A stretch of 28,445 nt of DNA from Candidatus Multivoradales bacterium (GCA_965248055.1 CBDFIJ010000003.1:1-28445); one strand, 5' to 3'. Counted from the first letter of the stretch, positions 1,650-26,405 are shown. A program made the numbers and translations. Notes: generated from the sequence alone by a model not told the origin.

Positions 1650-2500
1650 CTAATACGGCTTGTCTCCTGTATGCGTCCTTACATGACGGGTAAGATTACT
1701 TTGGTGAGAAAAATCCTTATCACAATGGGAACATTTAAAGGGTTTCTGTCCTGTATGTGTTCTAAGGTGGCTAGTAAGCATATTCTTTCTGCAAAATCCT
1801 TTATCACAATAGGGACAACGATAAGGCTTGTCTCCTGTATGTATCCTTACATGACAGGTAAGATTACTTAGGTGAGAAAATCGCTTATCACAATGAGAAC
1901 ATTGATAAGGCTTGTCTCCTGTATGCAACCTTAAATGACAGGTAAGATTATGTTTGCGGGAAAATCCTTTATCACAAGAGGGACAATGATAAGGCTTGTC
2001 TCCTGTATGCGTCCTTACATGACGGATAAGATGACTTTTTTTAGAAAATCCCTTATCACAATGGGAACATTGATAAGGCTTTTCTCCACTGTGTGTTCTT
2101 AAATGTATAAGGTTGCTTTCTTTAGTAAAACCCTTATTACACTTTAAGGGTTTCTCTCCTGTATGTGTTCTAAGGTGGCTAGTAAGCTCATTCTTTTGAG
2201 AAAATGTCTTATCACACCGATAACATTTAAAAGGCTTTTCTCCACTGTGTGTTTTAAAATGGCTAAGAAGGGTTCTTCTTTGAGAAAAACCCTTATCACA
2301 CTGGGAACACTTGAAAGGTTTCTCTCCTGTTTCTGTTGTAAGGTGGTGAGTATGCTCATACTCGCCCTCGTGTGTTTTCTGATGTAGTATAAGAGTGCTC
2401 TCATCAGTAAATGCCTTACTGCAATGTATACAAAATTGGGACTTCTCTCCAAAGCATGTATGTGGGTGTATCTTGGCCTGTCCATTGTCCAACTCTCTAT
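1650..2500 (-). CDS. C2H2 zinc-finger array, terminal coding exon A (8 intact fingers + 1 finger with in-frame deletions)
   Basis: ORF 1650..2492 with tandem CxxC-x12-HxxxH and TGEKP/TGDKP linkers. Acceptor ttttcctccccAG at 2501-2513 opens in phase 1 (xAT AGA GAG TTG). Ends at TAG inside a finger. Confidence 0.8.
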
Positions 2501-2879
2501 CTGGGGAGGAAAATATACAGTATTCCTATTATCCATATATTTATTTTATGAACAAAGTATCATGAAGATAATATTTATAAAAAAGACCAATTCAATCAAC
2601 TTAACGCTCAGTTTTATAAGCAAATACACTTTTGATCCATTCATAAAATCTTACATCCATTACAAATGTTATATCAATATCTGTTTAATTGGGTATAAAA
2701 GAAGAAAAAAAAGATGTTAATACTTAATGTCTGATAAAAATACATATGTCAATAACTCACAAGAATGAATGCCACTGTAGGAAGGTGGGCAATATTGAGA
2801 AGCATACATTGTAGCACAGGTAAATGTAATAAGATCTACAATAAAAATATTTTCTGTCATTGATAGGACTCTGCGGTCT

Positions 2880-2936
2880 AGTGTGCCACAGGAATCATTT
2901 ATGGGACCTTTACTCTTCACTTCTACAATGACATTA
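2880..2936 (+). mobile_element. Old LINE (CR1/L2-type) reverse-transcriptase relic in intron
   Basis: Translates SVPQESFMGPLLF then, after a frameshift, YNDI, matching the non-LTR RT motif GVPQGSxLGPLLFxxYxNDI. Confidence 0.55.
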
Positions 2937-3257
2937 CATTCATATTTATAACAGGATGGACATCATTAAAATAAGGTTTGTAATCAGTGTTGTATTTAAG
3001 ACCAGGCATCTCAAAACAAAGACCACCACCTAGTATGTGTCCAAAGCACTAGAGACCTTCCAGAAACCATGGCAACCAAATTGCTATACAAACATTTATC
3101 AGGATTTTCTCTAGCATATCACCCAGAACCCTCCATCAAAATAGAACAGTGGTATGTCATTTATTCAGTGTGCTTTCTAATATACTGGTATTATCGAAAA
3201 TAATATCGCTAGTGATATTCGTTTGTCTCGCAATGTGGTCAATAAGGAATCTAAAAG

Positions 3258-3300
3258 ATCACGACGTTTCGTATGCTACTGCGATGCTTCGTCAGGTGAT
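3258..3300 (-). ncRNA. Minimal type I hammerhead ribozyme (Penelope-type)
   Basis: Minus strand reads ATCAC-CTGACGA-A-GCAT(cgcagtagc)ATAC-GAAA-CG-TC-GTGAT: stem I ATCAC/GTGAT, core CUGANGA and GAAA, palindromic ACGU stem III, UC cleavage site. Stem II has one mismatch. Confidence 0.7.
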
Positions 3301-3491
3301 AAAAACTATTGTAAGCAAGGGTCTTTTATACTTTACGGGAGGACCGGCGGAGCGGTCTATAATTCGATCGATAATTGGAACAATAACGCCCAATGCCTAT
3401 TGGTCGACGCACACGGTGATCGACCAATCACCAAGGTCGCTGGTTCGGCTGATGAACCATACGGTCATACAATCATACGGTACTCAACCAA

Positions 3492-3950
3492 TCAACGGGC
3501 CGCGGGCTCGGGCCGTCTGCTGAATGGAATCGACCGTTGTTGGCTGGCAGGACGGCGAGTGTCATGGCGGCGTATCGTCCGCATCCAAAATTCGGGGATA
3601 TCGATCCCGTTGTCTCTGTTGAAATTATTAGGATTGAGACGGATATTGATAGCTTCTTTTACCCTCCGTGTATACCAATGCCGTTCCTGGGAAAGGCACT
3701 GAACCCCGTCCCAGTCTGGTTGATGCTGGTTATCCCAAGCATGTTCGGCTACGGCTGAGTTGTCAGTTCGACGGAGTCTGACGTCCCTCTTATGCTCAGT
3801 GATTCTTTCTTTTATCGGACGGGCAGTTTCACCGATGTAGGATCTATCACATCCTTTACAAGGGATGTTGTACACAATGCCGTCCCGTCTATGTGGAGGA
3901 ATTGGATCCTTGGGGCGTGTAAGTTGTTGACGTAGGGTGGTATCTGATCT
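3492..3950 (-). pseudogene. Penelope-like GIY-YIG endonuclease domain fragment (RT part missing)
   Basis: RSDTTLRQQLTRPKDP...GIVYNIPCKGCDRSYIGETARPIKERITEH...SAVAEH...RRVKEAINI...FNRDNG: typical PLE GIY-YIG motifs. Confidence 0.85.
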
Positions 3951-4140
3951 GATATTACTGGTATTAGTATTAGTATTATTAGTATTATACTGGTATTAGT
4001 TCACTTTTTTTTCTTTTTTATTATTCAGAAAATCCCTAATCACACAAGGAAGACATCCCATAGGAAAGTGAAAAGTATGCCGCAGACCTGCCGCAGATCT
4101 GCGGCAGACTTTTAGTCTGCGGCAAAGAGTATGCCGAAAT

Positions 4141-4400
4141 ATGCGGCAGAAAGAAATTTTGCTGCAGACTTGCCGCATACCAGTATGCCACAGGAACAGT
4201 CTGCGGCAGGATGAAACTTTGATCCAGACTTGCCGCATACTAGTATGCCACTGGAACAATCTGCGGCAGGATGAAACTTTGCTCCAGACTTGCCGCATAC
4301 TAGTATGCCACAGGAACGGTCTGCGGCAGATCTGCGGCAGGATGAAACTTTGCTCCAGACTTGCCGCATACCAGTATGCCACAGGAACAGTCTGCGGCAG
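4141..4400. repeat. 60-bp tandem repeat, about 4 copies
   Basis: Unit CTGCGGCAGGATGAAACTTTGCTCCAGACTTGCCGCATAC(C/T)AGTATGCCACAGGAACAGT at 4141, 4201, 4261, 4332 (11-bp insert before the last). Confidence 0.9.
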
Positions 4401-5018
4401 GTCTGCCACAGAAAAGTGGGAAATTATACAGTCTGCAGCAAGGCTATAGGCGGCCATTTTGGAGGACATGCAGTACCATGAGGTTGCAGGCTGAGCCCAT
4501 GATCTTGTAAATTCCTGTGTTAGCACTGTTAATTGTCTTTTTAGCTTCTGTCAAACCAAACAATTTGCTTCAAGTTCAACTGGTACCATAAGAGGAATTT
4601 ATTACATAAGAGGAGACTGAGGAATTAACAGACTGTTTCAAACATTTTTGTTGTGCCATATGTGATCTTATCTTCAGCCCCACTAACTCACTTTGTTGTT
4701 GTAACTATATAGCACATGGATCTGTGACTCTACTCTGGACTATGTGTATGCAGTTATTGTATTCCTATTCCTCTACCTAAACCCATATTTGTAGAATTGT
4801 TGAAGCAATTCCACCTGTTTTAGCCATTTCTACTAATTCAAGGTGCTAGAATGTAATGATGCAATGCATGCTCTCCAGCATAGCCTTCCTGCAAGACTGC
4901 ATACTTAATTGCCACGTACTGGATATGAAAGAGTATGCGGCAGGTCTGCAACAGGTCTATATGAGATATGAATATTCATGATGAAGAGTCTGCGGCAGGT
5001 CTGCAGCAGACTCTTTGT

Positions 5019-5293
5019 TATACTGAAAGAGTATGCGGCAAGTCTGCAGCAAGTCTGTGGCAGACCTGCCGCAGACTCTTCATCATACTGAAAGAGTATG
5101 CGGCCAAGTCTGCAGCAAGTGACTCTTCATCATACTGAAAGAGTATGCGGCAAGTCTGCAGCAAGTCTGTGGCAGACCTGCCGCAGACTCTTCATCATAC
5201 TGAAAGAATATGCGGCAAGTCTGCAGCAAGTGACTCTTCATCATACTGAAAGAGTATGCGGTAAGTCTGCAGCAAGTCTGCGGCAGACCTGCC
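5019..5293. repeat. Higher-order tandem repeat with alternating 65- and 46/47-bp units
   Basis: (C/T)ATACTGAAAGA unit starts at 5019, 5084, 5131, 5196, 5242. Confidence 0.85.
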
Positions 5294-5389
5294 CTGTCCA
5301 TACATGCTTTGGTAGATTGCTTTGGCAAGATAATCCTTTGTCACAATGGGAACATGGATATAAGGCCTTTCTTCACTGTGTGTTCTTAA

Positions 5390-5773
5390 AGGCATTGTTT
5401 AACAATGTTTCCAGTGTTACAAATTTGAGATGCATGGCCCCAAGTGTTATCATTGTCTGTGATATGGTGTAATATTGAAGCCCTAAAAAAACTGCGCTTC
5501 AAAATGATGAGGTACCTCAAAAAAGTAAAAAGCTTTGAGTGACCGGTTTTACCATACTCATTTTCCCCAATAGACTGTAGTGCTATAAAAACCGTTGTGA
5601 AAACGGTTTTTGAAATTTCGAATTTCAATCATAAATATCTTGATAATCAGACAGGTGATCGGCTTGTAAAAGTCATGGGATTCCTGACTGACCTAAAGGT
5701 TAATAATTATGATTGCAGCATGAGCTACATTAAGGATTTTGTTCAGAATCTAAGGCAAAGTTACCTAATCCCT
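5390..5773. mobile_element. TTAA-specific non-autonomous DNA transposon (Kolobok-like)
   Basis: TTAA TSD at 5386-5389 and 5774-5777. AGG...CCT termini with imperfect TIR (about 12/18). A second partial copy lies at 21618-21816. Confidence 0.75.
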
Positions 5774-6090
5774 TTAAATGGCTAATAAGGGTACTCCTTT
5801 GAGAAAAACCTTTACCACACTGAGAGACTGAGAACACCTTAAGGGTTTCTCCATGTGTCTGTTCTAAGGTGACTAGTAAGATCACTTATACAACAAAATA
5901 CCTTATTAAATTTGAGACATTTATATGGCATTTTCCTGTTTGTTATTAGGTGATAAGCAAGACCATACACTGTATTTACAATAAAATCCCCTTTTAAACA
6001 AAGTAAACATTTAAATGGCTTTTTCCAGTAGGTATGATTAGATTAAAAGTAAGATTACAGTTACAAGAAAATCTCTTAATACAATCTAAC

Positions 6091-6410
6091 TGTTACTGAC
6101 AGGAAGTTTTCTCCTGTGTTTGATAAAATCATGTAACGATAAGTCGGGAAATGCTGACGTCATAGACGAGGCTTTTTGGGGAATTGACATGTATTTGACT
6201 ATTGAGGGCGTTTCTTCGCATGCCACTGATTTTCCTTGTTTGGAACGGTCGGACGACCGTGAGGTTGTGATGATAAATTAATTCTTTTTGATGAGCCCAA
6301 CGTTATTGAACCGTGCTGATACGTGCTGAAGTATCTTGTCAGCGTGGTCTCATACTGGGTTTAGAACTTTGTGTCCTGCTTGATTATTTATCGTCACAGT
6401 GTCCCCAACA
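6091..6410 (+). repeat. 5' LTR
   Basis: TGTTACTGAC...CCCCAACA, 320 bp. No difference from the 3' LTR found by eye. Confidence 0.97.
6155..6283 (+). promoter_or_regulatory. Putative LTR promoter elements: CRE palindrome, short palindrome, TATA-like box
   Basis: TGACGTCA at 6155-6162. ACGGTCG-GA-CGACCGT at 6245-6260. GATAAATTAATT at 6272-6283, about 29 nt upstream of 6301. Confidence 0.35.
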
Positions 6411-6414
6411 TCAA

Positions 6415-6425
6415 GTTCAATAACG
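6415..6425 (+). promoter_or_regulatory. Non-tRNA primer-binding site candidate, complementary to LTR 6301-6311
   Basis: GTTCAATAACG is the exact reverse complement of CGTTATTGAAC (6301-6311). No TGG-initiated tRNA PBS follows the LTR. Confidence 0.55.
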
Positions 6426-6435
6426 CTTCATCAGG

Positions 6436-8076
6436 ATGAATGCAGCAGGTCAACTTCAAGCTGCTGGTGGGCAGTCTGAGGTCAAACAGGAAGATGAAAA
6501 ACAGGAAAAGAAACAGGGAAATGTGTTGGAGGTGGATCCTGAAGACTCGGTGAGTCAGTGTGTCAGCCATACTAGCTCTGCTTCGTCAGCCATGTTGAAA
6601 GCTATGGCCAGAAAGGCAGCCCTAGCAGCTGAAGCAGCTGCTATAGAAGAACGCCAACAGCTAGAACTTGAGGAATTTCAACTAACGCAGCGTAAGTTGA
6701 GATTATCGGTGCAGACGAAGCTCAGGGTTGCAGAAGCAGAAGAACAGATATACCTTGAGTTTGAGAATAAGAAGTTAGGAATAAGCTTTCCTGAGAAAGA
6801 ACAGGATGAAACCTTACCATACACTCCTGGCAAGGTGGTGACAGAGACTGTTGTTCCTACTAAGTCTACGAAGTGTAAGCCTATCACAGCAGATAGGTCT
6901 GACCATGGACAACCGCTGACCATGAGTGATGATTCCGATGTAGTCACCCTACTGAAGGAAGGACAACAGGAGCAACGCCGTCTTTGGGAGGTGATGCAGC
7001 TGCCTAAGGCCGAGTTGACGCCTTATGACGGAAATCCCCTAGAATTTTGGGAGTTCTGGCGGAGTTTCGAGGACAACATTGACTCTAGTTCGTGCGGAGA
7101 TAGGACGAAGCTAACTCGCCTCTTATACTATTGTCGAGGGGAACCTAAGAGACGTTTGAGTCCTTGCTTATTAATGAACGCATCACAAGGATATTCAACA
7201 GCAAAGCGACTTCTGATTGAAAGATTTGGAGACCCAGTTGTCATCACAGACTCCTGGATGAAGAAGATAACATCTGGGAAGCAGATTGGCCCTCGTGACA
7301 AGAAAGGTCTAAGAGAGCTGGCAGATGACATGAGTGTCTGCCTTATGTCATTTCAAGCAATGGGATTCGAACAGGAACTCTCCCCTCAGAAGGTGCTTCT
7401 CCCACTGGCGGAGAGACTGCCTTTCCATTTAAAAGGGAAGTGGCTGAGCAGAGTTGGAGCGATTCGGCGCCAGGAGAGAATCCCAAGATTTGAAGATCTG
7501 ATGTACTTTGTGCAGGAGGCTGCGCAGGAAGTTAATGACCCGGTGTATGGAGAGCTGATGTCTGGTCAGAGTGAGCAACGCACGCCTTCTCGAAGTGGGA
7601 AGTCAAAGGGCTCCTTCTCTACATCTTCCACTGCAAAGCCTGTTGAACTACATGTAGAGTGTTTCCAGTGCAAGGGTAACCATAGGCTGTGGGATTGTAA
7701 GCAGTTTAAGGACTTGCCTCCTAAGGATAGAATGCGGCTAGCAAGGAATAAGGGACTGTGTTTTAACTGTCTGAGACGAGGTCATATGATAGGAGCATGT
7801 AGTAGCAAGAGGACTTGCTCAGTAGGTGGTTGCACAAGGAAGCACAATAAGCTTCTCCATATGACAGAACCTGATGGCGGCACACAAAATAGAAATGTGG
7901 AGCAAGAAGCCTCCTGTAGTTCCACAGGGGCCGGCAGGAAAAGTGTGCTCCCTATAGTGCCTGTGAGGGTGAAGGCAGAAGGCTGCCAAGTTATGCTGTG
8001 GACATATGCATTGCTGGACCAAGGGTCAACAGGTACATTTTGTTCAGCAAGTTCTAGCAAGGTCACTCGGTGCTAA
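6436..8076 (+). CDS. gag: BEL/Pao gag plus start of aspartic protease (reading frame slips near 8047)
   Basis: LTPYDGNPLEFWEFW (Pao gag core). Knuckles CFQCKGNHRLWDC, CFNCLRRGHMIGAC, CSVGGCTRKHNKLLH. Protease site ALLDQGS. Confidence 0.9.
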   Translation: MNAAGQLQAAGGQSEVKQEDEKQEKKQGNVLEVDPEDSVSQCVSHTSSASSAMLKAMARKAALAAEAAAIEERQQLELEEFQLTQRKLRLSVQTKLRVAEAEEQIYLEFENKKLGISFPEKEQDETLPYTPGKVVTETVVPTKSTKCKPITADRSDHGQPLTMSDDSDVVTLLKEGQQEQRRLWEVMQLPKAELTPYDGNPLEFWEFWRSFEDNIDSSSCGDRTKLTRLLYYCRGEPKRRLSPCLLMNASQGYSTAKRLLIERFGDPVVITDSWMKKITSGKQIGPRDKKGLRELADDMSVCLMSFQAMGFEQELSPQKVLLPLAERLPFHLKGKWLSRVGAIRRQERIPRFEDLMYFVQEAAQEVNDPVYGELMSGQSEQRTPSRSGKSKGSFSTSSTAKPVELHVECFQCKGNHRLWDCKQFKDLPPKDRMRLARNKGLCFNCLRRGHMIGACSSKRTCSVGGCTRKHNKLLHMTEPDGGTQNRNVEQEASCSSTGAGRKSVLPIVPVRVKAEGCQVMLWTYALLDQGSTGTFCSASSSKVTRC

Positions 8077-8695
8077 GGGAGTCAAAGGGAAGCTTCTACT
8101 AACGACCCTTGATCGTAAAGAAAGTACTGTCCACACTGAAGCCGTCAGTTTGGTTGTGGACTCCGGAGATTACAGCAAGCAGATCAAGATGTTATGTGTG
8201 TACACAAAGGAAAATATCAACGTCAAGGGTGTACACATGGCCACAGTCGATGACATCGAAGGACTGACCCACCTAAGAGGGATTGACATCCCTGTGGCCA
8301 CTGAAGATGAGGTGGGACTGGTCATCGGTCAAGACGTCCCAGAAGCTCTGATGCCTCTAGAGGTTAGACATGGAGAGAAAGGACCATACGCAGTAAGGAC
8401 GTGCCTTGGGTGGTCACTCCATGGTCCACTCAGCCGAGCATGTGAAATGAACACTCCAGTGTATGCTACGAACACCTTCATCGAAGGAGATCTGTGCCTC
8501 GAGAGACAGTTAGAGAGGTTCTGGAAGCTTGAGACCCCTGATCCTTTCAAGGAAGAGAGAGCTATGTCAAGGAATGATGTCAAGGCCTTGGCAGAGTGGG
8601 AGCAGGGCATCTGCATAGAGGAAGGTCATTATCAGCTCCCTATCCCGTTCAAGAAGAGACCTCCAGATCTCCAGAATAACCGATGGTTGGCTGAA
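8048..8695 (+). pseudogene. Protease C-part/spacer of the BEL polyprotein in the +1 frame, ended by an insertion-borne TAA
   Basis: QVLARSLG...VGLVIGQD...PYAVRTCLGWSLHG...LERFWKLE...YQLPIPFK...NNRWLAE are standard BEL/Pao motifs (ORF track 8006..8698). Confidence 0.85.
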
Positions 8696-8830
8696 TAACG
8701 CCAGATAAGAACGACGAAGAAGGTGCTCGGTGCCTTGATGAGACAGCAAGTGCTGTCTGACGAGAACTTATCAACGCTGATGAAACTCCTTCGTCTTAAA
8801 CAAGGACGTAATGTTTTTGTGATGGAATGA

Positions 8831-11800
8831 GGCTGTCTTGGAAGAAGGCTTAGTCAGAGTGATGGTCTCCTTCAGAAGTATACAGATGGCATGGCAGACC
8901 TTTTGAAGAAGGGATATGCAGAGGAGGTCAATGAACTTGACAGTAAGAAGGAATGCGAATGGTATTTGCCACATCACCCGGTATTCCATCCCCAGAAACC
9001 GGGAAAAGTGAGAATAGTCTTCAATTGTGCATCAGCATGGAAAGGTTTGTCACTGAATGATGTGGTTAATCAGGGACCAGATCTGACTAACAAGCTGATC
9101 GGAGTGCTGTTGAGGTTTAGAACTGCGCCAGTGGCTTTGATGGCAGACATTGAAGCGATGTTTCATCAAGTTCGTGTGCCAGCACCAGACCGAGATGTAC
9201 TGAGATTCTTATGGTGGCCAACAGGTGACTTGAAGGAAGATCCATGTGTCTACAGAATGTGTGTGCACTTATTCGGTGGGACTTGGAGTCCCAGCTGCTG
9301 TAGCTATGCCTTACGACGCACAGCTGAAGACAACAAGGGTGAATTCTCTCCTGAAGCAGTAAAGGCAGTGACTAGGAATTTCTATGTGGACGACTGCTTA
9401 ATCTCCACTAAGGATGAGGAAGATGCCATACGACTAGCACAAGAATTGAAAAGCCTGCTAGAGAAGGGAGGCTTTAACCTGATCAAGTGGACAAGTAACA
9501 ACCGCAAAGTTGTGGAAGCCATCCCAGTGGAGGATAGAAGTAAACAAGTTAAGGACTTAGATCTTAGCAAGGAAGCACTACCAGTTGAAAGAGCCCTGGG
9601 GATCAAATGGGATGTGCAAGAGGACCGTCTAGAGTACAAGACATTGATAAAGGAGAAACCACTGACAAGAAGGGGTTTGCTTAGCATTGTGTCAAGCATT
9701 TATGACCCGCTTGGCTACCTGAGTCCCTTTATCTTGAGAGCTAAGCTGTTGATGCAGAAGTTAGCAACAAAGAAGTTAGGATGGGATGACCCAATTCCAG
9801 ATGTTGGACTGCAGTTATGGCAGCAGTGGGTAAAGCAACTTCCTGAAGTAGAAAACTTCAAGGTGCCAAGATGTGTGGTTCCTGCAGGATATGGTGCCAA
9901 GACAGAGCATCAGTTACATCACTTTGCTGATGCATCCGAAGATGCCTATGGAGCGGTGACATACCTGGTGGTAAGGAACTCTAAAGGGCAAGTCTGTAGC
10001 AGTCTTGTCTTTGCCAAGTCTCGCCTCGCTCCAGTGAAGAAGACTACGATTCCTCGTCTCGAATTGATGGCTGCTACTGTTGCGGTGAAGTCAGATGTCT
10101 TAGTGAGGAGAGAACTGGATCTACCACTAAAGGACTCTGTGTTCTGGACTGACAGCATGATTGTATTGGCATACATTAAGAATGAAGACAAAAGGTTTCA
10201 CACCTTTATTGCCAATAGACTGTCTATGATTCACTCTGCCAGTGATGTAAAGCAGTGGCATCATGTCAACACGAAAGAGAATCCGGCTGATGACGTCAGT
10301 AGAGGCATGAGTGCTAGGGATCTCGTGGCTAGTGAGAGATGGCTTCATGGGCCAAAATTCATCCTGTTGACTGAAGAGCAGCAGAGCCAAGATCCAGAAG
10401 CTGATGATATCCTACTAGACGATGATCCAGAAGTAAAGACTGTGAAGGCTTATGCCGCTGAGACTGATGTTGATGTACCAATTGCGGCTACTGATGAACT
10501 GTTGAGCTACTTCTCAGATTGGTACAAGCTTAAGAAGGCAGTAGCTAGAATCTTGCAGTTTCGGGAATATCTTCTGTGCAAGGTGCGGAAGGAGGTATTT
10601 GACTGTAAGGTGCTTCTTACAGTGGATGACATGAGAGAGGCTGAGCAGGCAATCCTGAAATATGTTCAGCGCCTGGCATACCCAGCTGAATACCAGGCAA
10701 TTGAGGAGAAGCCAGCCTTGAATGGAAAGCAGAGGGCTAGTAAGTTGAAGAAGTCCAGCCCTCTCTATAAGTTAGACCCTATGATGAGCAGAACTGGGTT
10801 GCTGTGTGTTGGAGGCCGCCTTAGGAATGCAGAGCTGAGTGACGAGATGAAGCATCCCATCATCTTACCACCCAAGCATCACGTGGTAACACTGTTAGTG
10901 AGACATGTTCATGACATGGTGGGACATTCAGGCAGAGAGCATGTCCTATCGATGCTGAGGCAGCGATTCTGGTTGATCAGAGGGAGGTCTACTGTGCGAC
11001 AGGTGAAACGGGACTGTTTTAAGTGTAAACGCCTGTCGTCTCCAACTCTCGGGCAGAAGATGGCTGATTTACCTAGTGATCGTGTGGCGTTTGACAAGCC
11101 ACCATTTACTAATGTTGGAGTGGACTGTTTTGGCCCTTATCTTGTCAAACAGGGCAGAAGCCAAGTGAAGAGATATGGCTGTATCTTCACTTGCCTATGT
11201 GTGAGAGCCGTGCACATAGAGATCTTGCATTCTATGGACACTGATTCATTTCTGAACGCTCTTCATCGATTCATGGCTCGCCGTGGAAGACCAGAGCTCA
11301 TCAGATCTGACAACGGCACGAATTTCGTCGGAGCAGAGAGAGAGCTGCGAGAGGGGTTAAGTAGATGGAACCAGCAGAGAATTCATGACCATCTACTCCA
11401 GAAAGGCATTGAATGGAGGTTTAACCCACCAGCGGCCTCGCACATGGGTGGATGTTGGGAACGCCAGATAAGAACGACGAAGAAGGTGCTCGGTGCCTTG
11501 ATGAGACAGCAAGTGCTGTCTGACGAGAACTTATCAACGCTGATGTGTAAGGTGGAGTCCATCATCAACGGGCGCCCTCTGACAGTAGTGTCGGATGATG
11601 CGGTGGATCCAGAACCCCTCACTCCGAATCATTTGCTCCTGCTGCGGGGTAATGGTACTGGGCCGCCTGACCTCTTCGAGGCACGAAATGTGTATAGCAG
11701 GCGACGATGGAGACAGGTTCAGTACCTTAGTGACATTTTCTGGCAGAGATGGAGGAAAGAGTATCTTCCTACACTCCAAGCGCGACAAAGGTGGAACGAG

Positions 11801-12001
11801 CGTGAGCGTGATGTTAGCGTGGGTGACATCGTTCACATCATGGAAGAAGCACCACGAAACCACTGGGCTGTCGGTCGCGTTGTAGAGATTTTCCCAGGCA
11901 AGGATGGGCTAGTTAGGTCAGTTAGGGTGCAAACCAAATCATCGACCCTTGTTAGGCCAATTCACAAGCTGTGTCTTTTGGAATCAGTGAATCATAGATA
12001 G
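8831..12001 (+). CDS. pol: BEL/Pao pol: reverse transcriptase, RNase H, integrase
   Basis: RT: YLPHHPV, ADIEAMFHQV, FYVDD. RNase H: HHFADAS, TIPRLEL, WTDS, NPADDVSRG. IN: H..GH..CFKC, VDCFGP, SDNGTNF, WERQI, C-terminal FWQRWRKEYL. Frame open from 8831 (first ATG 8891). Confidence 0.93.
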   Translation, partial: GCLGRRLSQSDGLLQKYTDGMADLLKKGYAEEVNELDSKKECEWYLPHHPVFHPQKPGKVRIVFNCASAWKGLSLNDVVNQGPDLTNKLIGVLLRFRTAPVALMADIEAMFHQVRVPAPDRDVLRFLWWPTGDLKEDPCVYRMCVHLFGGTWSPSCCSYALRRTAEDNKGEFSPEAVKAVTRNFYVDDCLISTKDEEDAIRLAQELKSLLEKGGFNLIKWTSNNRKVVEAIPVEDRSKQVKDLDLSKEALPVERALGIKWDVQEDRLEYKTLIKEKPLTRRGLLSIVSSIYDPLGYLSPFILRAKLLMQKLATKKLGWDDPIPDVGLQLWQQWVKQLPEVENFKVPRCVVPAGYGAKTEHQLHHFADASEDAYGAVTYLVVRNSKGQVCSSLVFAKSRLAPVKKTTIPRLELMAATVAVKSDVLVRRELDLPLKDSVFWTDSMIVLAYIKNEDKRFHTFIANRLSMIHSASDVKQWHHVNTKENPADDVSRGMSARDLVASERWLHGPKFILLTEEQQSQDPEADDILLDDDPEVKTVKAYAAETDVDVPIAATDELLSYFSDWYKLKKAVARILQFREYLLCKVRKEVFDCKVLLTVDDMREAEQAILKYVQRLAYPAEYQAIEEKPALNGKQRASKLKKSSPLYKLDPMMSRTGLLCVGGRLRNAELSDEMKHPIILPPKHHVVTLLVRHVHDMVGHSGREHVLSMLRQRFWLIRGRSTVRQVKRDCFKCKRLSSPTLGQKMADLPSDRVAFDKPPFTNVGVDCFGPYLVKQGRSQVKRYGCIFTCLCVRAVHIEILHSMDTDSFLNALHRFMARRGRPELIRSDNGTNFVGAERELREGLSRWNQQRIHDHLLQKGIEWRFNPPAASHMGGCWERQIRTTKKVLGALMRQQVLSDENLSTLMCKVESIINGRPLTVVSDDAVDPEPLTPNHLLLLRGNGTGPPDLFEARNVYSRRRWRQVQYLSDIFWQRWRKEYLPTLQARQRWNERERDVSVGDIVHIMEEAPRNHWAVGRVVEIFPGKDGLVRSVRVQTKSSTLVRPIHKLCLLESVNHR

Positions 12002-12753
12002 GTATATTCTATCCCCAGATAGGTACAAGTTTTACCCCTGTGTTTGTTTCTTAGAGCACTCTATTTGACAGAACTGAACTTCGATAGAGAGACATTTCAA
12101 GATGAATAGACATTTTGACAAATGAACAGAGAAATCAAAGTACAGTTTACACCATGGACTGTTATTTGAAAGGACTAATAATTCTGCATAGAGTGGACTC
12201 ATTTATTACTCTGAAAAAGGACATTTCAAGTATTCACCTGTATAGCAGACTAGTGGACTGGTTGCTTAGCAACAGGAGCCTTATCGGACTCTTTTTCGTA
12301 CAGACAACACATCAATATCAAATTTATGTATCAATGTGCATGTATATTGTTGTGATGTTTGTTTTATATACATGTATTAACATTATTCAACAGGTTGTTT
12401 TCAAGATAGAAATCACTATTTTATCATGCAATTGCATTTTGTGCAGAGATTTACTTTCTAAAGAGGGAGATTATTTAAAAGGAGATGAGAATTTATCAAT
12501 ATTGATGTTTTCTGACATTGCAAGAAATTGCTAAACTATGGGATTCTTAGGAGTAAAATATTTGAGAATATGGAATTTTCTTTAGATCTGTGTTGTCTTC
12601 CAGTATATACACATTTACTGCAAACAAATTAACATATTGATAATGTGTTTCAGGTACAAGTAAAGACAGTTATGTGTAACAGAGCATTTAAATTGTCAAA
12701 ATATTTTCTTTTTGATATATGATGTTATAAATGATTGCTTTTAGCTCACATTT

Positions 12754-12765
12754 AAGGGGCCGGTA
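12754..12765 (+). promoter_or_regulatory. Polypurine tract
   Basis: AAGGGGCCGGTA immediately 5' of the 3' LTR. Confidence 0.7.
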
Positions 12766-13085
12766 TGTTACTGACAGGAAGTTTTCTCCTGTGTTTGATA
12801 AAATCATGTAACGATAAGTCGGGAAATGCTGACGTCATAGACGAGGCTTTTTGGGGAATTGACATGTATTTGACTATTGAGGGCGTTTCTTCGCATGCCA
12901 CTGATTTTCCTTGTTTGGAACGGTCGGACGACCGTGAGGTTGTGATGATAAATTAATTCTTTTTGATGAGCCCAACGTTATTGAACCGTGCTGATACGTG
13001 CTGAAGTATCTTGTCAGCGTGGTCTCATACTGGGTTTAGAACTTTGTGTCCTGCTTGATTATTTATCGTCACAGTGTCCCCAACA
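12766..13085 (+). repeat. 3' LTR
   Basis: 320-bp copy of 6091-6410 followed by TSD CTAAC. Confidence 0.97.
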
Positions 13086-13213
13086 CTAACAGTTATAGAG
13101 TTTGTGTGTATTCTTAGATGCATAGGCTCATGCACTTTATGACAAAAGTAATTATAACATTAGGAACACTTAAAAGATTTCTGTCCTATATGTGTTCTAA
13201 GGTGGCTAGTAAC

Positions 13214-16952: not shown

Positions 16953-17704
16953 AGTGACTCTCACACTCTGCCGTGTAGGCCTACCGTGTGCCACCGTGCG
17001 CGAAAATGTCTGCGGACGGTGGAGAACGGCGAGGGCACACGGTGGTTCGTTATCGAAGCGGGCAACACGTTAATAGGGCGTTGGCGCTTATTTACACCCG
17101 GTGGGACCCGGCGAAAGTTTTGGGCATGTTTAAAACTTTGGCCGGCTGGCACCGGCCGCAAGTAAGCGGCAAGAGAACGATGTTGAACGGTATGAGGACG
17201 GTATGAATACATTATGAAAACGGTCACACTGTATGCACACGTTCACAACACGCTCATAACCCGTTTCAGAACGGTGATGAAAAATGGAGAGCGGACTGAC
17301 CGTTGCCGTTCAAATCGGGGTATTTATGGCAGTCGTGTCATGACGTCAGCAGTCCGGGGACTCGCTCACAGGATGCTCCGAGCGGTGAGGGGACGCTAAG
17401 TGACTGGTAGGTGGCTGCTACAAACCCGGTGCACACGTTCGAGACCCGGTATGGGCCCGGTATGGAAACGGCCAAAATTTTCAACAAAAGTCACTCTGGG
17501 CGGTGAAGACGGTAGAAGCACGTTCAACACCCGGTATGCGCCCGGTGAGAACGGTCAGAAGATGGCAACGAAACGGTGAAAAGATTAATTTTATGAATTT
17601 TTTTTTTGCGGCCGGGGACAAGTTCGCTCAAAACCCAACGTTCTGTTTTTTTAATAGCCTGGCAGGTGGACTGTAGGCCTACACGGCAGAGTGTGAGAGC
17701 TCCA
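16953..17704. mobile_element. Non-autonomous PIF/Harbinger-like element
   Basis: Perfect 27-bp inverted repeat CTCTCACACTCTGCCGTGTAGGCCTAC (16958-16984 / 17673-17699). TAA (16950-16952) / TTA (17705-17707) flanks. Removal restores TEFTIHLRTH. Confidence 0.78.
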
Positions 17705-18014
17705 TTAGATGGATAGTAAACTCAGTCTTTCAGCAAAATCCTTTATCACAATAGGGACACTAATAAGGCTAGTCTCCTGTATGCGTCCTTACATGACGGG
17801 TAAGATTACTTTGGTGAGAAAAATCCTTATCACAATGGGAACATTTAAAGGGTTTCTCTCCAGTATGTGTTCTAAGGTGGCTAATAAGCTCATTCTTTTG
17901 AGAAAATGTCACATCACACTGGGAACATTTATAAGGCTTTTCACCACTGTGTGTTCTTAAATAGCAGGTCAGGTAATATCTACGACAAAATGTCCTATCA
18001 CACTGGGAACATTT

Positions 18015-18880
18015 TTAAGGCTTTTCACCACTGTGTGTTCTTAAATGACAGGTCAGGGAATATCTATGAGAAAATGCCTTATCACACTGGGAACATTTAT
18101 AAGGCTTTTCACCACTGTGTGTTCTTAAATGACAGGTCAGGGAATATCTACGAGAAAATGCCATATCACAATAGGGACATCGATAAGGCTTGTCTCCTGT
18201 ATGAATCCTTACATGATAGGTAAGATTACTTTTGAGAGAAAATCCCTTATCACAATGGGAACATTTAAAGGGTTTCTCTCCTGTATGTGTTTTAAGGTGG
18301 CTAGTAAGCATATTCTTTCGGCAAAATTCTTTATCACAATACGGACATCTATAAGGCTTGTCTCCTGTATGTGTCCTTACATGACCGGTAAGATTATTTT
18401 GGTGAGAAAAAGCCTTATCACAATGGGAACATGTATAAGGCTTTTCTCCACTGTGTGTTCTTAAATGGCCTCTAAGGGCACTTTGGTGAGAAAAACCCTT
18501 CTCACAATGGGAACATTTAAAGGGTTTCTCTCCTGTATGTATTCTAAGGTGGCAGGTAAGACTATTCTTTTGAGAAAATGTCTTATCACACTGAGAACAT
18601 TTAAAAGGCTTTTCTCCACTGTGTGTTTTTAAATGGCTAAGAAGTGTTCTTCTTTGAGAAAAACCCTTATCACACTGGGAACACTTGAAAGGTTTCTCTC
18701 CTGTTTGTGTTGTAATGTGGTGAGTATGCTCATACTCGCCCTGGTGTGTTTTCTGATGTAGTATAAGAGCGCTCTCATCTGTAAATGCCTTACTGCAATG
18801 TAAACAAAGTTGGGACTTCTCTCCACTGCATGCTGTTATATGTGGGTGTATCTTGTCCTGTCCACTGTCCAACTCTTTAT
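18015..18880 (-). CDS. C2H2 zinc-finger array, terminal coding exon B (9 fingers)
   Basis: ORF 18015..18872. Phase-1 acceptor ttttcctccccAG at 18881-18893. Ends at TAA (TAT->TAA) after SGEKP. Paralogous to exon A including about 150 bp of intron. Confidence 0.82.
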
Positions 18881-19935
18881 CTGGGGAGGAAAATATACAA
18901 TATTCCTATTATCCAACTATTTACTTCATGAAGTTAATCAACTAAATGCTCAGTTTTATAAGCAAATACACTTTTTGATTCATTCACAAAATCTTACATC
19001 TATTCAAAAGGTTATATTAATATCTAATTTATGAGTGTTGGTCATTTACCATTTTCTCTTTTTGTTAGTAGTTAATCATGGACCGACGACAAATGGACTT
19101 TTGACGGCGAGAGTAGTAAAACTAATGATAGCTACCACCTGTTCTAAAGTCTTACTTTCCTCTTTGTTTAAGGTATGTTTTGATAAGCTCCGATAAGGGG
19201 CCTTTGGTCCTATGAGATCCACCACAATTTTGTTTGTCGCCCTCTATCACCAAAAGTGACTTCACACTGATCAATGCTTCCCACAGTTTGCATTTTTCAT
19301 TTCATGAATGAATCATGACATGCCCATGCGCAGATAAAACTAAATTAGGGTTCCCCGGATGTAAATGTGCAATTAATGTCATCTTCATGTAGCCAATCTG
19401 TAAAAAAAAACTGTTGAAATCAGCGATTTCTTCGATTTTTTTACAACTTTTTGTTTGTGTGCAGCATAGGCCTACTACACGTATATAAGCAAGGAAAGTG
19501 ACCTCAAGAGCTTACAAAATACAGTTTTAAAAGTGCTTTCCCCCCTCCTGTTTCTGTTGACTTTTCTTTGAAACCAACGACATTGTGATGATAAAAAATC
19601 CCTCGTTTGTGGATTAAAATCTTTTGTTGGTTGTTGCGTTTGCTTGCGTTTTTGTTATAGACATTGAAAGAATTTGTTATCTTTTTATTTCGTAAAACTA
19701 GCAGATGAAGTCCCATTGATAGACATTGGGTACATGCTATTTTTAATATACAGTTTGGTTGTGGTAATATGAGAGTGAGACTGCTTTTTTATCTTCCCTC
19801 AGATTTTATCTTATTTTATCTTGAGGTACTTCATATGTGTACTGGGTTATTTGAGAATCTAAGATTGGTGATAAATAACCTTGTCTGTAAATTTGGGAAT
19901 TGACAAACATTGCAAAATATTCAACATATGGGATT

Positions 19936-21128
19936 TACATGATGGGTAAGATTACTTTGGTGAGAAAAATCCTTATCACAATGGGAACATCTATGAGGCT
20001 TCTAACCACTGTGCGTTCTTAAAGGTAAAGACCAGTTATGGTCATGCGATTGCATTGTGAAAGAAACGTTGTGGAATCGATCAGAAAAGGTTGATCATCT
20101 AGCATCTAGCATCTGCAAGGTTCTGGAATCATCAAAATGATAAGAAATTTGGCCCATTCTTTGTAAAGTTACAAGCACTATACACAATCGATGTATATGG
20201 GACTACCCTATATCTCTCACAGTCCATGAGAGAAACAAATTTACCAAATATATGAATTAGTAGGCGGTTTCCCGGCAAATTTTTTATCATCATGTATTAG
20301 TCAAAACATATTCTTTCACATGATTGGTAATGAGAGCTTCCATTTCATTTTTGAAATTGGGGCTTTTCCAATACTGGTCTTTACCTTTAAATGGCTCATA
20401 AGGGTACTTCTTCGAGAAAAACTTGTATCACAATCGGAACATCAATAAGGCTTTTCTCCACTTTGTGTTTTAAGGTGGCTAGTAAGCATATTCTTTATCA
20501 CAAATAGGAACACAGATGAGGCTTTTCTCCACTGTGTGTTCTTGAATGTCTAATAAATTTTTTTTTTTGAGAAAAACCCTTATCACACTGGGAACATTGT
20601 TAAGGCTTTTCTCCACTGTGCATTCTTAAATAGATAGTAAGATTACTTTGGCAAGTAAAAACCTTATCGCAATGAGAATATTTATGAAGCTTTTTACCAC
20701 TGTGTGTTCTTAAATGGCTTAGAAGGCTACTTCTTTGAGAAACCTGTATCACAATGGGAAAACTTAAAAGGGTTTCTCTCCTCTATGTGTTCTAAGGTGA
20801 ATAGTAAGCTTATTCTTTAGAGAAAAACCTTTATCACACTGGGAACATTGATAAGGCTTTTCTCCACTGTGCATTCTTAAATAGATAGTAAGATTACTTT
20901 GGCAAGTAAAATCTTTATCACAATGGGAACATCTATCAGGCTTTTTACCACTGTGTGTTCTTAAATAGCCTCTAAAGTTACTTCTTTGAGAAAAACCTGT
21001 ATCACAATGGGAACACTGATAAGGCTTTTCTCCTGTAAGCGTCCTTACATGACGGGTAAGATCACTTTGGTGAGAAAAATCCTTATCAAAATGGGAACAT
21101 CTATAAGGCTTTTCACCACTGTGTGTTC
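19936..21128 (-). pseudogene. Decayed 3' part of ZNF array C
   Basis: 84-bp ZNF periodicity with many indels and lost Zn ligands, downstream of a 7-nt deletion at about 21158. Confidence 0.8.
20023..20386. mobile_element. TTAA-specific non-autonomous DNA transposon (Kolobok-like, different family from 5390-5773)
   Basis: Perfect 14-bp TIR AGGTAAAGACCAGT. TTAA TSD at 20019-20022 and 20387-20390. Confidence 0.85.
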
Positions 21129-21535
21129 TTAAATGGCCCCTAAGGGTACTTCTTTGAGTGTATCACAATGAAAACATCGATAAGGCTTTTTACCACTGTG
21201 TGTTCTTAAATGGCCCTTAAGGGTACTTCTTTGAGAAAAACCTGTATCACAATGGCAACACCTAAGGGGTTTCTCTCCTGTATGTGTTTTAAGGTGGATA
21301 GTAACCTTAGACTTTTCAGAAAATCCTTTATCACAATAGACACATCGATAAGGCTTTTCTCCACTGTGCATTCTTGAATGGGTAGTAAGGTCACAATGGG
21401 AACATTTATCAGGATTTTCACCACATTTCTCATCAGTACATGTCTTACTGCAATGTAAACACAGATGGGACTTCTCTCCACTGCATACTGTTATATGTGG
21501 TTGTATCTTTTCATGTCCATTGTCCAACTCTTTAT
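21129..21535 (-). CDS. C2H2 zinc-finger array, terminal exon C (2 intact fingers, 2 deleted fingers, then frameshift); possibly non-functional
   Basis: DKELDNG...YRCVYC..HLKTH, LRCCHC..HLRTH, YRCFHCDT|frameshift. In-frame acceptor AG at 21536-21537. Confidence 0.55.
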
Positions 21536-21617
21536 CTGGATTCTGGGGAGGAAAATATACAGTAATCCTAATATCCAACTATTTACTTAATCCTGGACTA
21601 AGCTCATGCGTTTTCCT

Positions 21618-21816
21618 AACGGTTTTCATAACACTAAAGTCTATTGGGGAAAACAAGTATGGTAAAACTGGTCACTCAAAGATTTTTACTTTTTTGAGGC
21701 GCTTCTTGGTCATTTTGAAAAGCTATTTTTTTAGGGCTTTAATATTACACCATATCACAGACACTGATAACACGAAGGGCCATGCATCTCAGATTTAACA
21801 TTGTTAAACGATGCCT
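21618..21816 (-). mobile_element. Truncated copy of the Kolobok-like element at 5390-5773
   Basis: Reverse-complement match to about 5390-5596. Terminus ...ATGCCT then TTAA (21817-21820). Confidence 0.8.
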
Positions 21817-21871
21817 TTAATATCAGGATGGACTTCCTCTTTAAGGATATGATTTGCCTTGTTGATCATAC

Positions 21872-21976
21872 CTTCAGGAATTGATTGCTCAGTTTCTCCT
21901 CCTCCTTCACCTTGAGTTGTAATAGGTTCAAATATCTCTTCCTCATCTTCTTGCTTTACGGTGGCATAGATCATTT
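21872..21976 (-). CDS. ZNF gene coding exon 4 (105 nt, phase 1-1): (E)MIYATVKQEDEEEIFEPITTQGEGGGETEQSIPE
   Basis: Acceptor tttcttatAG, donor AAG|GTATGA, open frame, VKQE motif. Confidence 0.75.
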
Positions 21977-22433: not shown

Positions 22434-22520
22434 CTTGTTTAGATGGGTCTTGTCCTTCTGTACTTGAGAGGGATTCATACATGTCTGTGTCAACTTCTTG
22501 TTTGATGGTGAAGACCAGAC
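22434..22520 (-). CDS. ZNF gene coding exon 3 (87 nt, phase 1-1): (G)LVFTIKQEVDTDMYESLSSTEGQDPSKQ
   Basis: Acceptor ttcacaacAG, donor AAG|GTATCA, IKQE motif. Confidence 0.72.
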
Positions 22521-23603: not shown

Positions 23604-23972
23604 GTTCCAGGACACAAAATCCCCTTTTCAAAATCTATGACTCGAATCTATTGTCTATAACATGTTATACACAATATTTTTTTAGTAGTGCCCCAAGAGA
23701 GAAGGAGCTTTTATACAGAAAAGCAGAAATTCATGGTATTTTTGTACACGACAAACAAGACAGTTATCTATGACTTTGTCACAATCCAGTAACCAAAATG
23801 CAGATTTTGAGATTTGCATGGACTAAGGGATATTATATATTTAAACAATCATAACTTTTTTAATTTGTGTATGATTTTGCTCTAACTTTCACCAATCCAC
23901 AGATCAAATCTTTCTGCTTTCATAGCAATTTGCTATCAATGTTTGATTTTCCTTTAAGAACCTATAGCCTAC

Positions 23973-24077
23973 CGTCTTGAGTTACAAGCTGACCCTCGTA
24001 TATCAAACCATCTGAACGTGGAATGGAATGACACATCTTCTTCTCAATTTCTCCTTCCTCCTTGATGTAGATGTTTC
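23973..24077 (-). CDS. ZNF gene coding exon 2 (105 nt, phase 1-1): (G)NIYIKEEGEIEKKMCHSIPRSDGLIYEGQLVTQD
   Basis: Acceptor catttacAG, donor ACG|GTAGGC, IKEE motif. Confidence 0.72.
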
Positions 24078-24388
24078 CTGTAAATGTAAATATAAACATC
24101 ATTAACATTCTTAATCACTATAGACTATCATTTCTATAATACAGAGTGAAGTTCTATGAATATGCAAATTGTGTTTTGAAATTAAGTTTTATGCATCTGT
24201 CTAGAGGTTGTATTGGTGCAAATAAACATTCATGATTCTGAGCTAGTGGACATATTTGTTTTGAATTTTAAAAAGTATATTTTTCTTCCTCATGATTTGA
24301 TGTGTAAGGTGAGAGAATGAAGGTTGTACCTAAAGATGCATAGTGGTGGGCTCTAGCTGGGGAATTTGACACTATTTGGGTGTTTACC

Positions 24389-25592
24389 CAGGGCTCAAAT
24401 TAATTTTTTGTCCACGGGGGCTCTTTCAACAAAAAAATGAGCCCCCGTGAGCCTTCTCACGGGGGCTCTTGTAGTGCTGACGGGGGCTCTTATTTTAATA
24501 CAAATTTCCAATAATTGGTACCCATGAAACTCTTAAATTCTTTGGTATTTTATCATTATCATTTATTTAAGTCAGCATTTTCCCTCTTAGAAATGTACTT
24601 GTTACATAGCTGTTATTGACTTTTACCTCTGTGATGACATTCTCTCCATTTCTTTCCGCTCTGCACATAATGTCCTCCTCATTATTCGGGGCAAGCTTAT
24701 TGACATTCTTTCTTTACTTTTAGTTTTTACCATATCCTTCCAAAACACAGGGGCGGATCTAGCTTTTTGCTAAGGGTAGGGGGTAACCCAAATACGATGT
24801 GGAGCATCGTCCACGAGCCGTGAGGCGATTTTTGTTGTTGCTATTTTGAAATTTGAACCCCCGTAAGTGATGTTTTCCTGGCATTTACAAACATGCGGAG
24901 CATCGTCGACGAGCCGCAGAGCGGCGAGGCGATTTTCTGGCGCTATTTGAACCCCCATTAGTGATGTTTTCCTGGCATCTACTGACATCTACTAATACTG
25001 TGTAGGTCTGGACACACGATAGCATTTTTCTATGCACATCACATTTTCACTTGGCAGCCCAAGGGGGGGGGGGGGGGGTAAACCCCCTAAACCCGCCCCT
25101 GCAACATCTTTGGTGATCTTCTTCTCAATATTGATTTACTGGTCGAGTTACATTATTTGCTGATCTTTTAGAATAACCAGATTTCAGAGGATTCACAATT
25201 TTCACAACGAAACTTCTGCATGTTTTAGTCCTTGCGCGATCGTCTCCAGCTCCAGCAGATATTGGGCGTCAGCGTGCACACCGGTACTAGCGGCGCAGTA
25301 TAGCCACTGCTGACGGCCGCACTAGCTGCACTGCGAGCTTCTGTTGTTTGTATCGGTAATACTCATAGAGATGGGAGAGAAAGCGCCATCTAAGTTCCAT
25401 TTGATTGGTTTAAGGTTTGAAAATTGATACTCAATATTGTGTTAAAGTTATATCAGAAAAGATAATCTTTATTTTATAATTCCACGGCGGCGATTTTTAA
25501 TTTTGCAATCGCCCCCGTCAGCAACCTGACGGGGGCGATTATGGAGCTCACGGGGGCGAATCGCCCATCGCCCCCGTGTACTTTGAGCGCTG
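24389..25592 (-). mobile_element. Non-autonomous hAT-like element (copy 3, inverted relative to copies 1 and 2)
   Basis: TIR CAGGGCTCAAA / TTTGAGCGCTG. 8-bp TSD TGTTTACC (24381-24388, 25593-25600). Confidence 0.9.
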
Positions 25593-26303
25593 TGTTTACC
25601 CAATAATATGTCTTGTCAATCACCAGGGTTAGCCTTCAGTTTTATGACCAACAGGCCCTATGTAATGCTCAGCCTTTTCCACCCAACCTCATATGGTATA
25701 GCCATTATATTACATTTCCCACACCCAAAGACTCTCTGAGAGAGTAGGGGGTATTTCTTGATGGGATTACGGTTTGCTGTATGCAAGACTTGTACACCCA
25801 TCAATGGTATTTCCACCAAGTCTGGTGTCAGCGAATTATGACCTAAAGCACATGGAAACTGCCAACAATCTCCCTTTAAATTTTCAATTGCACATGCCTA
25901 ACACTCGTGAATCACAATGATTTTTAGTGTATTGAATATTGCTTTAATATTTTTGTTTAAATCAGTGCAGAGATAAAATAATCTGTATATTATCTGTATC
26001 CTTTTTATTTTTATTTTCTTTTCAGAGAGAGCTTTCTTTACTATTTTAAGGGATCTCCTCAGTGGCAATCTTATACTGTTTTTGCACAATGCATGTCCTA
26101 CATGTGCTATCTTTAAGGTCCAGCTCCTTTTTAAGGTTTTTAAAGTTTTTCAGACTTGCAATAGGTCTACTCTTCACACCTTTATAATTTTTATCTGTAA
26201 CGCTATATTTACTGAGTCAAAACAAATATATGCTGAACTTATATTTTCATTAGTCATCAGAAACATTACCAAATACAGCACAACCCATTGAAACATTCCA
26301 TAC

Positions 26304-26405
26304 CTTCATCATGTTCATGTGATGACTGAAGAGTTCCCTCTCCTTCTCCATCTGTACCTGAGAGAGACGTCCAACAATCAATTTCTTGCTTCATCGCCAT
26401 GTTAT
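26304..26405 (-). CDS. ZNF gene first visible coding exon (102 nt; likely start ATG at 26400): MAMKQEIDCWTSLSGTDGEGEGTLQSSHEHDE
   Basis: Acceptor tcatacacAG, Kozak-like AACATGG, donor AAG|GTATGG, MKQE motif. Confidence 0.68.

Follow-up and report, generated by a model that had tools for sequence, protein, structure and literature searches.

One set of N-terminal exons and three zinc-finger array cassettes in a sea-urchin-like contig binned with a bacterium

Introduction

Does a gene with one set of N-terminal exons and several zinc-finger arrays behind it use these arrays as alternative last exons, or are the surplus arrays orphan copies? The question is raised by a contig of 28,445 nucleotides (GCA_965248055.1, CBDFIJ010000003.1:1-28445; this whole stretch is called the window below), which is filed under Candidatus Multivoradales bacterium and carries, on its minus strand, four N-terminal coding exons followed by three cassettes of C2H2 zinc-finger sequence, named C, B and A in the order in which they follow the N-terminal exons. 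A preliminary description of this DNA proposed that the three arrays are a repertoire of alternative last exons. Our preferred reading, to which we give about an even chance, takes B and A for young orphan copies of a last exon, in a cluster of zinc-finger genes (ZNF) with birth-and-death turnover, that are not (or at least not yet) being kept as functional exons.

In Drosophila, lola, broad and fruitless (in cis) and mod(mdg4) (by trans-splicing) combine common 5' exons with alternative 3' exons that encode DNA-binding fingers. All of these genes have a BTB domain and one or two fingers (or FLYWCH) per alternative exon, and each of their junctions has been shown in mRNA.

Identity of the gene

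The window is one entire contig (1-28445) in a prokaryote bin of 3.4 Mb and four contigs, which holds this sea-urchin contig and is scored as 97.67% complete and 1.05% contaminated. The protein matches of the N-terminal module and of C identify it as animal DNA, nuclear and Strongylocentrotus purpuratus-like; it is eukaryote or host DNA binned together with the bacterium. Two open reading frames (ORFs) of the contig, P0137 and P0139 (retrieved proteins are cited by such numbers), are present in protein collections as if bacterial. The N-terminal exons all end at a phase-1 GT donor, and exons 2-4 are preceded by AG acceptors (slashes mark splice junctions):

26304..26400, minus strand: exon 1, coding part; ATG at 26400; donor GATGAAG/GTATGG after 26304, phase 1; peptide MAMKQEIDCWTSLSGTDGEGEGTLQSSHEHDE, which matches P0128
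23973..24077, minus strand: exon 2; 105 nt, phase 1-1; peptide NIYIKEEGEIEKK...
22434..22520, minus strand: exon 3; 87 nt, phase 1-1; peptide LVFTIKQEVDTD...
21872..21976, minus strand: exon 4; 105 nt, phase 1-1; peptide MIYATVKQEDEEE...SIPE; common donor G/GTATGA

With the N-terminal module as query, 11 proteins were retrieved, nine named S. purpuratus and two from metaclust. The conceptual product of exons 1-4 and C is identical to XP_011674546.1 (P0128, 289 aa) at 248 of 266 aligned residues and, at its N-terminus, at 127 of 131; residues 132-257 of P0128 correspond to window positions 21536-21159 with 95% identity. XP_011674546 (P0128) and its cluster mates XP_011674545 (P0131, isoform X1) and XP_011674548 (P0130, isoform X3) are predicted S. 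purpuratus 'zinc finger protein 271-like' isoforms. All three models (XP_011674546.1, XP_011674545.1 and XP_011674548.1) have the same four N-terminal exons as the window and the exon 4-C junction 21872->21535 (...SIPE/DKELDNG); they vary at the 5' end only, all have C at the end, and none includes B or A. The C of the window differs from these models in a frameshift after ...FHCDT, and hence its ORF ends earlier.

An AG at 26407-26406, upstream of the exon 1 ATG, suggests that exon 1 begins at 26405, behind a further 5' exon outside the window. The window nowhere encodes the additional N-terminal peptide of isoform X1, and the 5' exon and the promoter are probably located past its right edge.

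The three cassettes

The arrays are built from C-x2-C-x12-H-x3-H units with TGEKP-type linkers, as in C2H2 poly-zinc-finger proteins (PF00096, PF13465), with Pfam E-values for zf-H2C2_2 of 2.7e-62 (A), 3e-66 (B) and 4.7e-15 (C). The arrays go on past the ORF ends as decayed fingers, which reach about 19930 in C, about 17700 in B and position 1 in A:

21129..21555, minus strand: cassette C; polypyrimidine tract with two AGs, leader and short ORF ending at 21129; two intact canonical fingers before the frameshift relative to the XP models
19930..21128, minus strand: remainder of array C; decayed fingers that have stops and frameshifts and are missing zinc ligands
18015..18893, minus strand: cassette B; acceptor tract 18893-18881, exon from 18880; ORF of 287 codons with nine intact fingers
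17700..18014, minus strand: tail of B past its stop; one finger with a lost histidine, two intact fingers, then TGD(stop)PY(stop)CPYC
1650..2513, minus strand: cassette A; acceptor tract 2513-2501, exon from 2500; ORF of 283 codons with eight intact fingers and one broken finger
1..1649, minus strand: tail of A; decayed fingers as far as the contig end, with an inserted element of about 850 bp

Exactly three copies of the acceptor motif TTTTCCTCCCCAG are present in the window, one per cassette and all of them on its minus strand (C, 21555-21543; B, 18893-18881; A, 2513-2501); behind every copy come the leader AT A(A/G)A GAG TTG GAC and a C2H2 array. When the phase-1 donor after 21872 is joined conceptually to C (21535), B (18880) or A (2500), the frame is maintained in three of three cases. 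The statement that the arrays begin with a homologous phase-1 acceptor fitting this donor was thus confirmed, as was the extent of intron sequence common to A and B (put at about 150-190 bp), for which our alignment covers 151 nt with 88.7% identity and, counting its three gaps (1, 24 and 14 nt), spans about 190 nt. C shares with A and B only the last 45-60 nt or so of upstream intron. The count of nine fingers in B and eight in A, the best-preserved arrays, agreed with ours once the broken finger of A is added, and the reported difference in recognition-helix residues holds for most fingers of A and B; the identical helices are those of A-F1 and B-F1, of A-F7 and B-F5, and of A-F8 and the finger past the stop of B.

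The acceptor region of C contains an insert of 7 nt (AATCCAG) that had been overlooked. The AG of C that is homologous to the A and B acceptor (ending at 21543) reads G/AA TCC AGA TAA, a stop after three codons, and the in-frame AG of C ends at 21536. The stretch 21543-21528 (minus strand; acceptor CAG-(AATCCAG)-ATAAAG-AG) therefore holds several closely spaced AGs, and the predicted paralogs P0040, P0125, P0122 and P0135 appear to use different ones, giving DKELD, ELD and DRELD in frame and VGQWT out of frame. The closely spaced AGs of the cassettes appear to form a NAGNAG-like wobble that could switch a zinc-finger array on or off.

To look for N-terminal-type exons beyond exons 1-4, we compared the peptides of these exons with the window by tblastn, at word size 2 and E up to 100. 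No further exon of this type was found in the window, in agreement with the statement that none lies between C and B or between B and A; the sole non-self matches at E < 0.1 were those of exons 1 and 3 to each other. In the ORFs of B and A the first ATG does not occur before about codon 190. Lacking 5' exons and an early ATG, B and A could be translated only after splicing to upstream coding exons, and we rejected, on the same grounds, the idea that they are independent genes with a start of their own.

The leader of C is of the type TDEKCGE(N/K)P..., as in the arrays of P0135, and those of A and B are of the type TDE.xLILHQKTH..., as in P0040, P0124, P0025 and P0122. Since the leaders of A and B resemble those of other paralogs and differ from that of C, B and A seem to have been copied from the last-exon cassette of another family member and not from C. 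In our preferred reading, C is the recorded terminal exon of the gene, and B and A would be partial copies, each with the leader, the array and the final 190 bp or so of the intron; unequal recombination or segmental duplication, in a cluster with fast turnover, is their probable origin. They would reach a protein only by splicing to exon 4 or to a donor inside a leader; we infer that they are young and drift neutrally, and that they are not kept as a regulated repertoire.

Possible alternative or serial splicing

The arrangement of the cassettes can also be read as a set of mutually exclusive alternative last exons, by which one N-terminal module would be provided with three arrays in the manner of lola or broad, with long TGEKP arrays in place of short ones. 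The three in-frame joins at one and the same acceptor tract argue for it, as do the missing 5' exons and early ATG of B and A, the differences among the arrays in most recognition helices, and the varied use of exon-4-type donors in predicted S. purpuratus models. In these models the donor joins exon 2 or 3 of a following N-terminal set (P0121, P0122, P0123, P0124, P0125 and P0135), zinc-finger leaders through what seem to be three or more alternative AGs, of which one, in P0125, is out of frame, or a non-ZNF exon (P0127 and P0129), or is read through into the intron (P0126 and P0136). A further point in favour comes from a scan for AATAAA and ATTAAA, the only two hexamers included, in which none was found from C to 19800, and the first ATTAAA lies at 17655, after B; another lies at 778, after A.

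We nevertheless consider alternative last exons unlikely. No retrieved protein links the N-terminus to B or A, and the three retrieved isoforms all end in C. The acceptor of C is transcribed first and would normally win, and A is 19 kb from the donor, beyond a 7-kb retroelement. The search with the B leader among proteins of 157-503 aa gave seven matches, all paralogs or unrelated and the best of them 77% identical; no protein in this length range among 5.8 billion exceeds 77% identity to the leader of B or A. In the whole-array search, which was dominated by generic ZNFs and is informative only for P0025 and P0040, no near-identical protein for B or A occurred among 120 listed of 7909 passing (8000 candidates). 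Among public read-assembly proteins there was none for any family member, C included, so that the absence of B and A from these carries no information on expression.

Cassettes may also be joined in series. The leader codons TGC AGT AAG of all three cassettes contain a GTAAG donor, so that each leader may act as a mini-exon of 87 nt, phase 1-1, which can be joined to the next cassette. The equivalent donors lie after 18794 in B and after 2420 in A; in C the feature is:

21449..21535, minus strand: candidate leader mini-exon of C; 87 nt, phase 1-1, ending at the cryptic donor TGCA/GTAAGA; its use is deduced from P0040, P0123 and P0134

On this reading, exon 4 would be spliced to the C mini-exon and this, from the donor after 21449, to the acceptor of B, in frame, so that B would be the effective array and the decayed fingers of C would be skipped. 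The frame-preserving mini-exons in all three leaders fit such a path, and mini-exon splicing would account for paralog models with a double leader. P0040 (XP_030850501.1), P0123 (XP_011661711.1) and P0134 (XP_011675661.1) have a second leader after ...CLHC, in three different frames: P0040 has the leader twice in series (...CLHC K LDNGQ...), and the two other frames of P0123 and P0134 are explained by the three AGs of CAG-ATAAAG-AG and not by a DNA duplication. These proteins have the N-terminal module and the leader in common with the window gene; unlike the alternative-exon layout, their cassettes are joined serially, with two of the three models out of frame. Tandem cassettes would thus be recurrent in the family and be used in gene models in series rather than as alternatives. 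For the window gene we find the serial path doubtful: the splice reading of the paralogs comes from protein sequences only, the two out-of-frame models resemble splicing noise or substrates of nonsense-mediated decay, and no such product of the window locus occurs among the retrieved proteins.

Divergence and decay of the arrays

The preliminary description had proposed the ratio of nonsynonymous to synonymous substitution rates (dN/dS, omega) of A versus B as a check, with neutral divergence speaking against its proposal. We restricted the comparison to the first 108 codons (leader and fingers 1-2), the sole clearly orthologous part. These codons differ by 22 changes (synonymous, Sd = 3.2; nonsynonymous, Nd = 18.8), with dS = 0.053, dN = 0.075 and omega = 1.41. 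The probability of three or fewer synonymous changes among 22 is 0.38 at omega 1, 0.048 at omega 0.5 and 0.003 at omega 0.3. The divergence of A and B is neutral-like, and an omega of 0.3 or below is rejected (P = 0.003), in a small sample of 22 changes. Identity between A and B is 93.6% in the exon and 88.7% in the intron, a difference that is not significant (P = 0.07). An omega of 0.41 from the whole A-B alignment was discarded, since the fingers aligned past finger 2 are not orthologous.

Lesions are present in all three cassettes. The ORF of B is cut short by a premature stop, one finger of A is broken, and C is frameshifted relative to the XP models, with an immediate stop if its homologous AG is used. 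The stop of B is a TAA at 18017-18015, where the neighbouring repeat unit has TAT. The ORF of A ends at a TAG (1652-1650) inside ...TGDKPY(stop)CPYC, and this TAG recurs in B about 250 nt (83 codons) downstream of the TAA, as the stop after PY in TGD(stop)PY(stop)CPYC. Because the TAA of B lies upstream of the TAG common to both, the ORF of B is truncated relative to the A/B ancestor. In the broken finger of A the cysteine pair is gone and there are in-frame deletions. Selection maintaining B and A was thus not seen in the 108 codons compared (omega 1.41), nor in the state of the two arrays (premature stop in B, broken finger in A). In a simulation of neutral evolution, a cassette remained free of stops with a probability of 0.12-0.34 at 2.5-5% divergence per lineage, and under this model open ORFs would be only mildly surprising at such an age.

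The outcome for the original proposal is therefore divided. What was borne out is that one N-terminal set is accompanied by three in-frame arrays and that neither B nor A is preceded by its own 5' exons. A selected repertoire found no support, since the isoforms end in C, no protein with a B or A leader above the identity limit given above was found, and A-B divergence is neutral-like.

Several observations weigh against our preferred reading, orphan duplicates without a maintained function. The polypyrimidine tract and AG are identical across C, B and A. As no AATAAA or ATTAAA occurs between C and 17655, B is probably within the primary transcript, and the product of C has only two or three usable fingers, which leaves B as the sole good array near the gene. 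B and A retain 287 and 283 open codons with nine and eight intact fingers beside tails filled with stops. When indels at one tenth of the substitution rate were added to the simulation, survival fell to 0.006-0.09 per cassette, and all three indels in the ORF of A, as compared with B or with the 84-nt unit, have lengths divisible by three (P = 0.037 for random lengths), a count that is biased in that the ORFs were picked for being open. Diversifying selection would be another explanation for an omega above 1 combined with changes at contact residues of finger 2. Splicing into a second cassette occurs in predicted models from at least three paralogous loci (P0040, P0123 and P0134). Finally, the lack of B and A from annotation is weak evidence, as the XP models come from an older assembly and the lengths searched were limited to 157-503 aa.

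The N-terminal module and its family

Exons 1-4 encode a module of 131 aa with 32 acidic and 8 basic residues, and near the start of each exon there is one psi-K-x-E motif (MKQE, IKEE, IKQE and VKQE, the last followed by DEEE). The motif psi-K-x-E is the SUMO consensus, which an acidic tail strengthens. From its composition and motifs, the module could be an effector that depends on SUMO, and in this it brings to mind the glutamate-rich FiNZ domain. When P0128, P0121, P0125, P0126 and P0127 were searched against Pfam (E up to 0.01), no domain was assigned to their N-terminal module, a lone match to DUF192 being below threshold.

At E up to 0.001, the module is matched by 18 representatives among 1.84 billion, two of which are ORFs of the contig itself. 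Thirteen family proteins can be aligned with the whole module and are identical to the N-terminus of the window gene at 97-127 of 122-131 aligned residues; P0025 and P0129 align with only part of the module. In the plan of this family, which the window gene shares, a four-exon acidic module precedes the leader (D/E)xELDNGQ...CLHCSK, and the C2H2 array comes last. As judged from these alignments, the locus is a member of a small ZNF family seen here almost only in Strongylocentrotus (XP_011674546, XP_030850501, XP_011678199 and others). In P0127 and P0129 (S. purpuratus LOC581412 and LOC100889811), ...SIPE is followed by a C-terminus without zinc fingers, EILLKSYTHPSDDES..., for which there is no Pfam match; the N-terminal module seems to be common to genes with different C-terminal parts.

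Surroundings of the cassettes

The interval between A and B contains a retrotransposon with long terminal repeats (LTRs):

6091..13085, plus strand: BEL/Pao LTR retrotransposon; 6,995 bp, coding region split over three ORFs

Its LTRs (6091-6410 and 12766-13085) are 320 bp long, 100% identical and bounded by TG...CA, the target-site duplication CTAAC is present at 6086-6090 and 13086-13090, and Pfam matches to Peptidase_A17 (2e-50), DUF5641, RVT_1, rve and Integrase_H2C2 place it in the BEL/Pao class. The identical LTRs and the duplication indicate a very recent insertion. The acceptors of A and B are 16.4 kb apart, or about 9.4 kb without this element. Inside it, a stretch of 86 nt (8697-8782) is repeated exactly at 11460-11545.

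The element also bears on whether A and B are allelic or paralogous copies that were misjoined in one contig. The contig sits entirely in a prokaryote bin, and the leaders of A and B differ by only about 6%, a value that is included in the range of allelic divergence of S. purpuratus. The flanks of A and B are unrelated beyond about 190 bp, though, their finger orders differ, and the identical LTRs with a perfect 5-bp duplication between them point to a coherent local assembly, so that we regard such an artefact as highly improbable.

Isolated finger relics are found at about 13140-13215 and 14367-14497. Two elements were recognised by eye within the decayed arrays, one of about 360 bp with terminal inverted repeats and TTAA-like flanking duplications in the tail of C (about 20024-20385) and one of about 850 bp with inverted ends of about 35 bp beginning GGCC(A)n in the tail of A (about 190-1045). 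With dead fingers flanking all arrays and transposons inside them, the locus looks like a ZNF cluster in active birth-and-death turnover.

An ORF of 167 aa at 3495-3995 (minus strand) has a weak GIY-YIG match (E = 0.0056, under the Pfam cut-off), and tandem repeats of about 60-110 bp at 4139-4400 and 5009-5327 adjoin it. Endonuclease domains of the GIY-YIG kind are found in Penelope-like retroelements. The exon 4-C intron and intron 1 consist mostly of repeats that recur inverted in the A-B interval with 81-92% identity (21609-21796 versus 5421-5605; 24388-25599 versus 13209-14310); these are dispersed families and not gene sequence.

Comparison with known systems

The window locus resembles lola, broad and mod(mdg4) in having one N-terminal exon set and several in-frame 3' zinc-finger exons on the same strand. 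It differs in that no Pfam domain, and hence no BTB domain, was found when the N-terminal module was searched, in the eight to nine fingers held by the exons B and A, and in that a junction is recorded for C only, in predicted models. The locus is not a member of the lola/broad/mod(mdg4) class and at most works like one. A deuterostome counterpart of lola and broad, in which an acidic module with four psi-K-x-E motifs would be coupled to two or three interchangeable long arrays by last-exon choice or serial splicing, is a possibility to which we give little credence.

Wells et al. (2023, PMC10547256) describe FiNZ as a glutamate-rich N-terminal sequence of 28 aa in the FiNZ-ZNF proteins of cyprinids, and they mention the sea urchin as one of the species whose numerous ZNFs are poorly characterised. 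As far as that article's text was available to us, the window locus is like the tetrapod KRAB-ZNF and cyprinid FiNZ-ZNF clusters in its tandem TGEKP arrays in a single large last exon, its short, glutamate-rich and lineage-restricted N-terminus, and its abundance of dead fingers and transposons with birth-and-death turnover. Unlike FiNZ and KRAB, the sea-urchin module consists of four phase-1 exons (131 aa); in the same parts of PMC10547256 we found no mention of it and no description of orphan last-exon cassettes behind one N-terminal set. Compared with KRAB- and FiNZ-type clusters as presented there, the locus is an ordinary-looking new member whose N-terminal module we did not find described. 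The literature searched contained no account of this sea-urchin module or of alternative ZNF-array exons, although supplements may list sea-urchin ZNF subfamilies, and a search on alternative last exons of sea-urchin zinc-finger genes found nothing related.

Significance

If the arrays were interchangeable, new DNA-binding specificities would be gained by duplicating a last-exon cassette of 1.3 kb and not a whole gene, and use of B or A would offer a cheap route to such specificities in fast-evolving ZNF clusters. To our knowledge, it would be the first known case of long TGEKP arrays swapped as alternative 3' exons outside arthropod BTB-ZF genes. On a practical level, a contig of 28 kb of animal DNA is contained in a prokaryote genome bin. 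Under the reading that we prefer, the locus mainly illustrates how birth-and-death ZNF clusters yield orphan last-exon copies, and its N-terminal module, whose matches here are almost all from Strongylocentrotus, marks out a small family of sea-urchin ZNFs.

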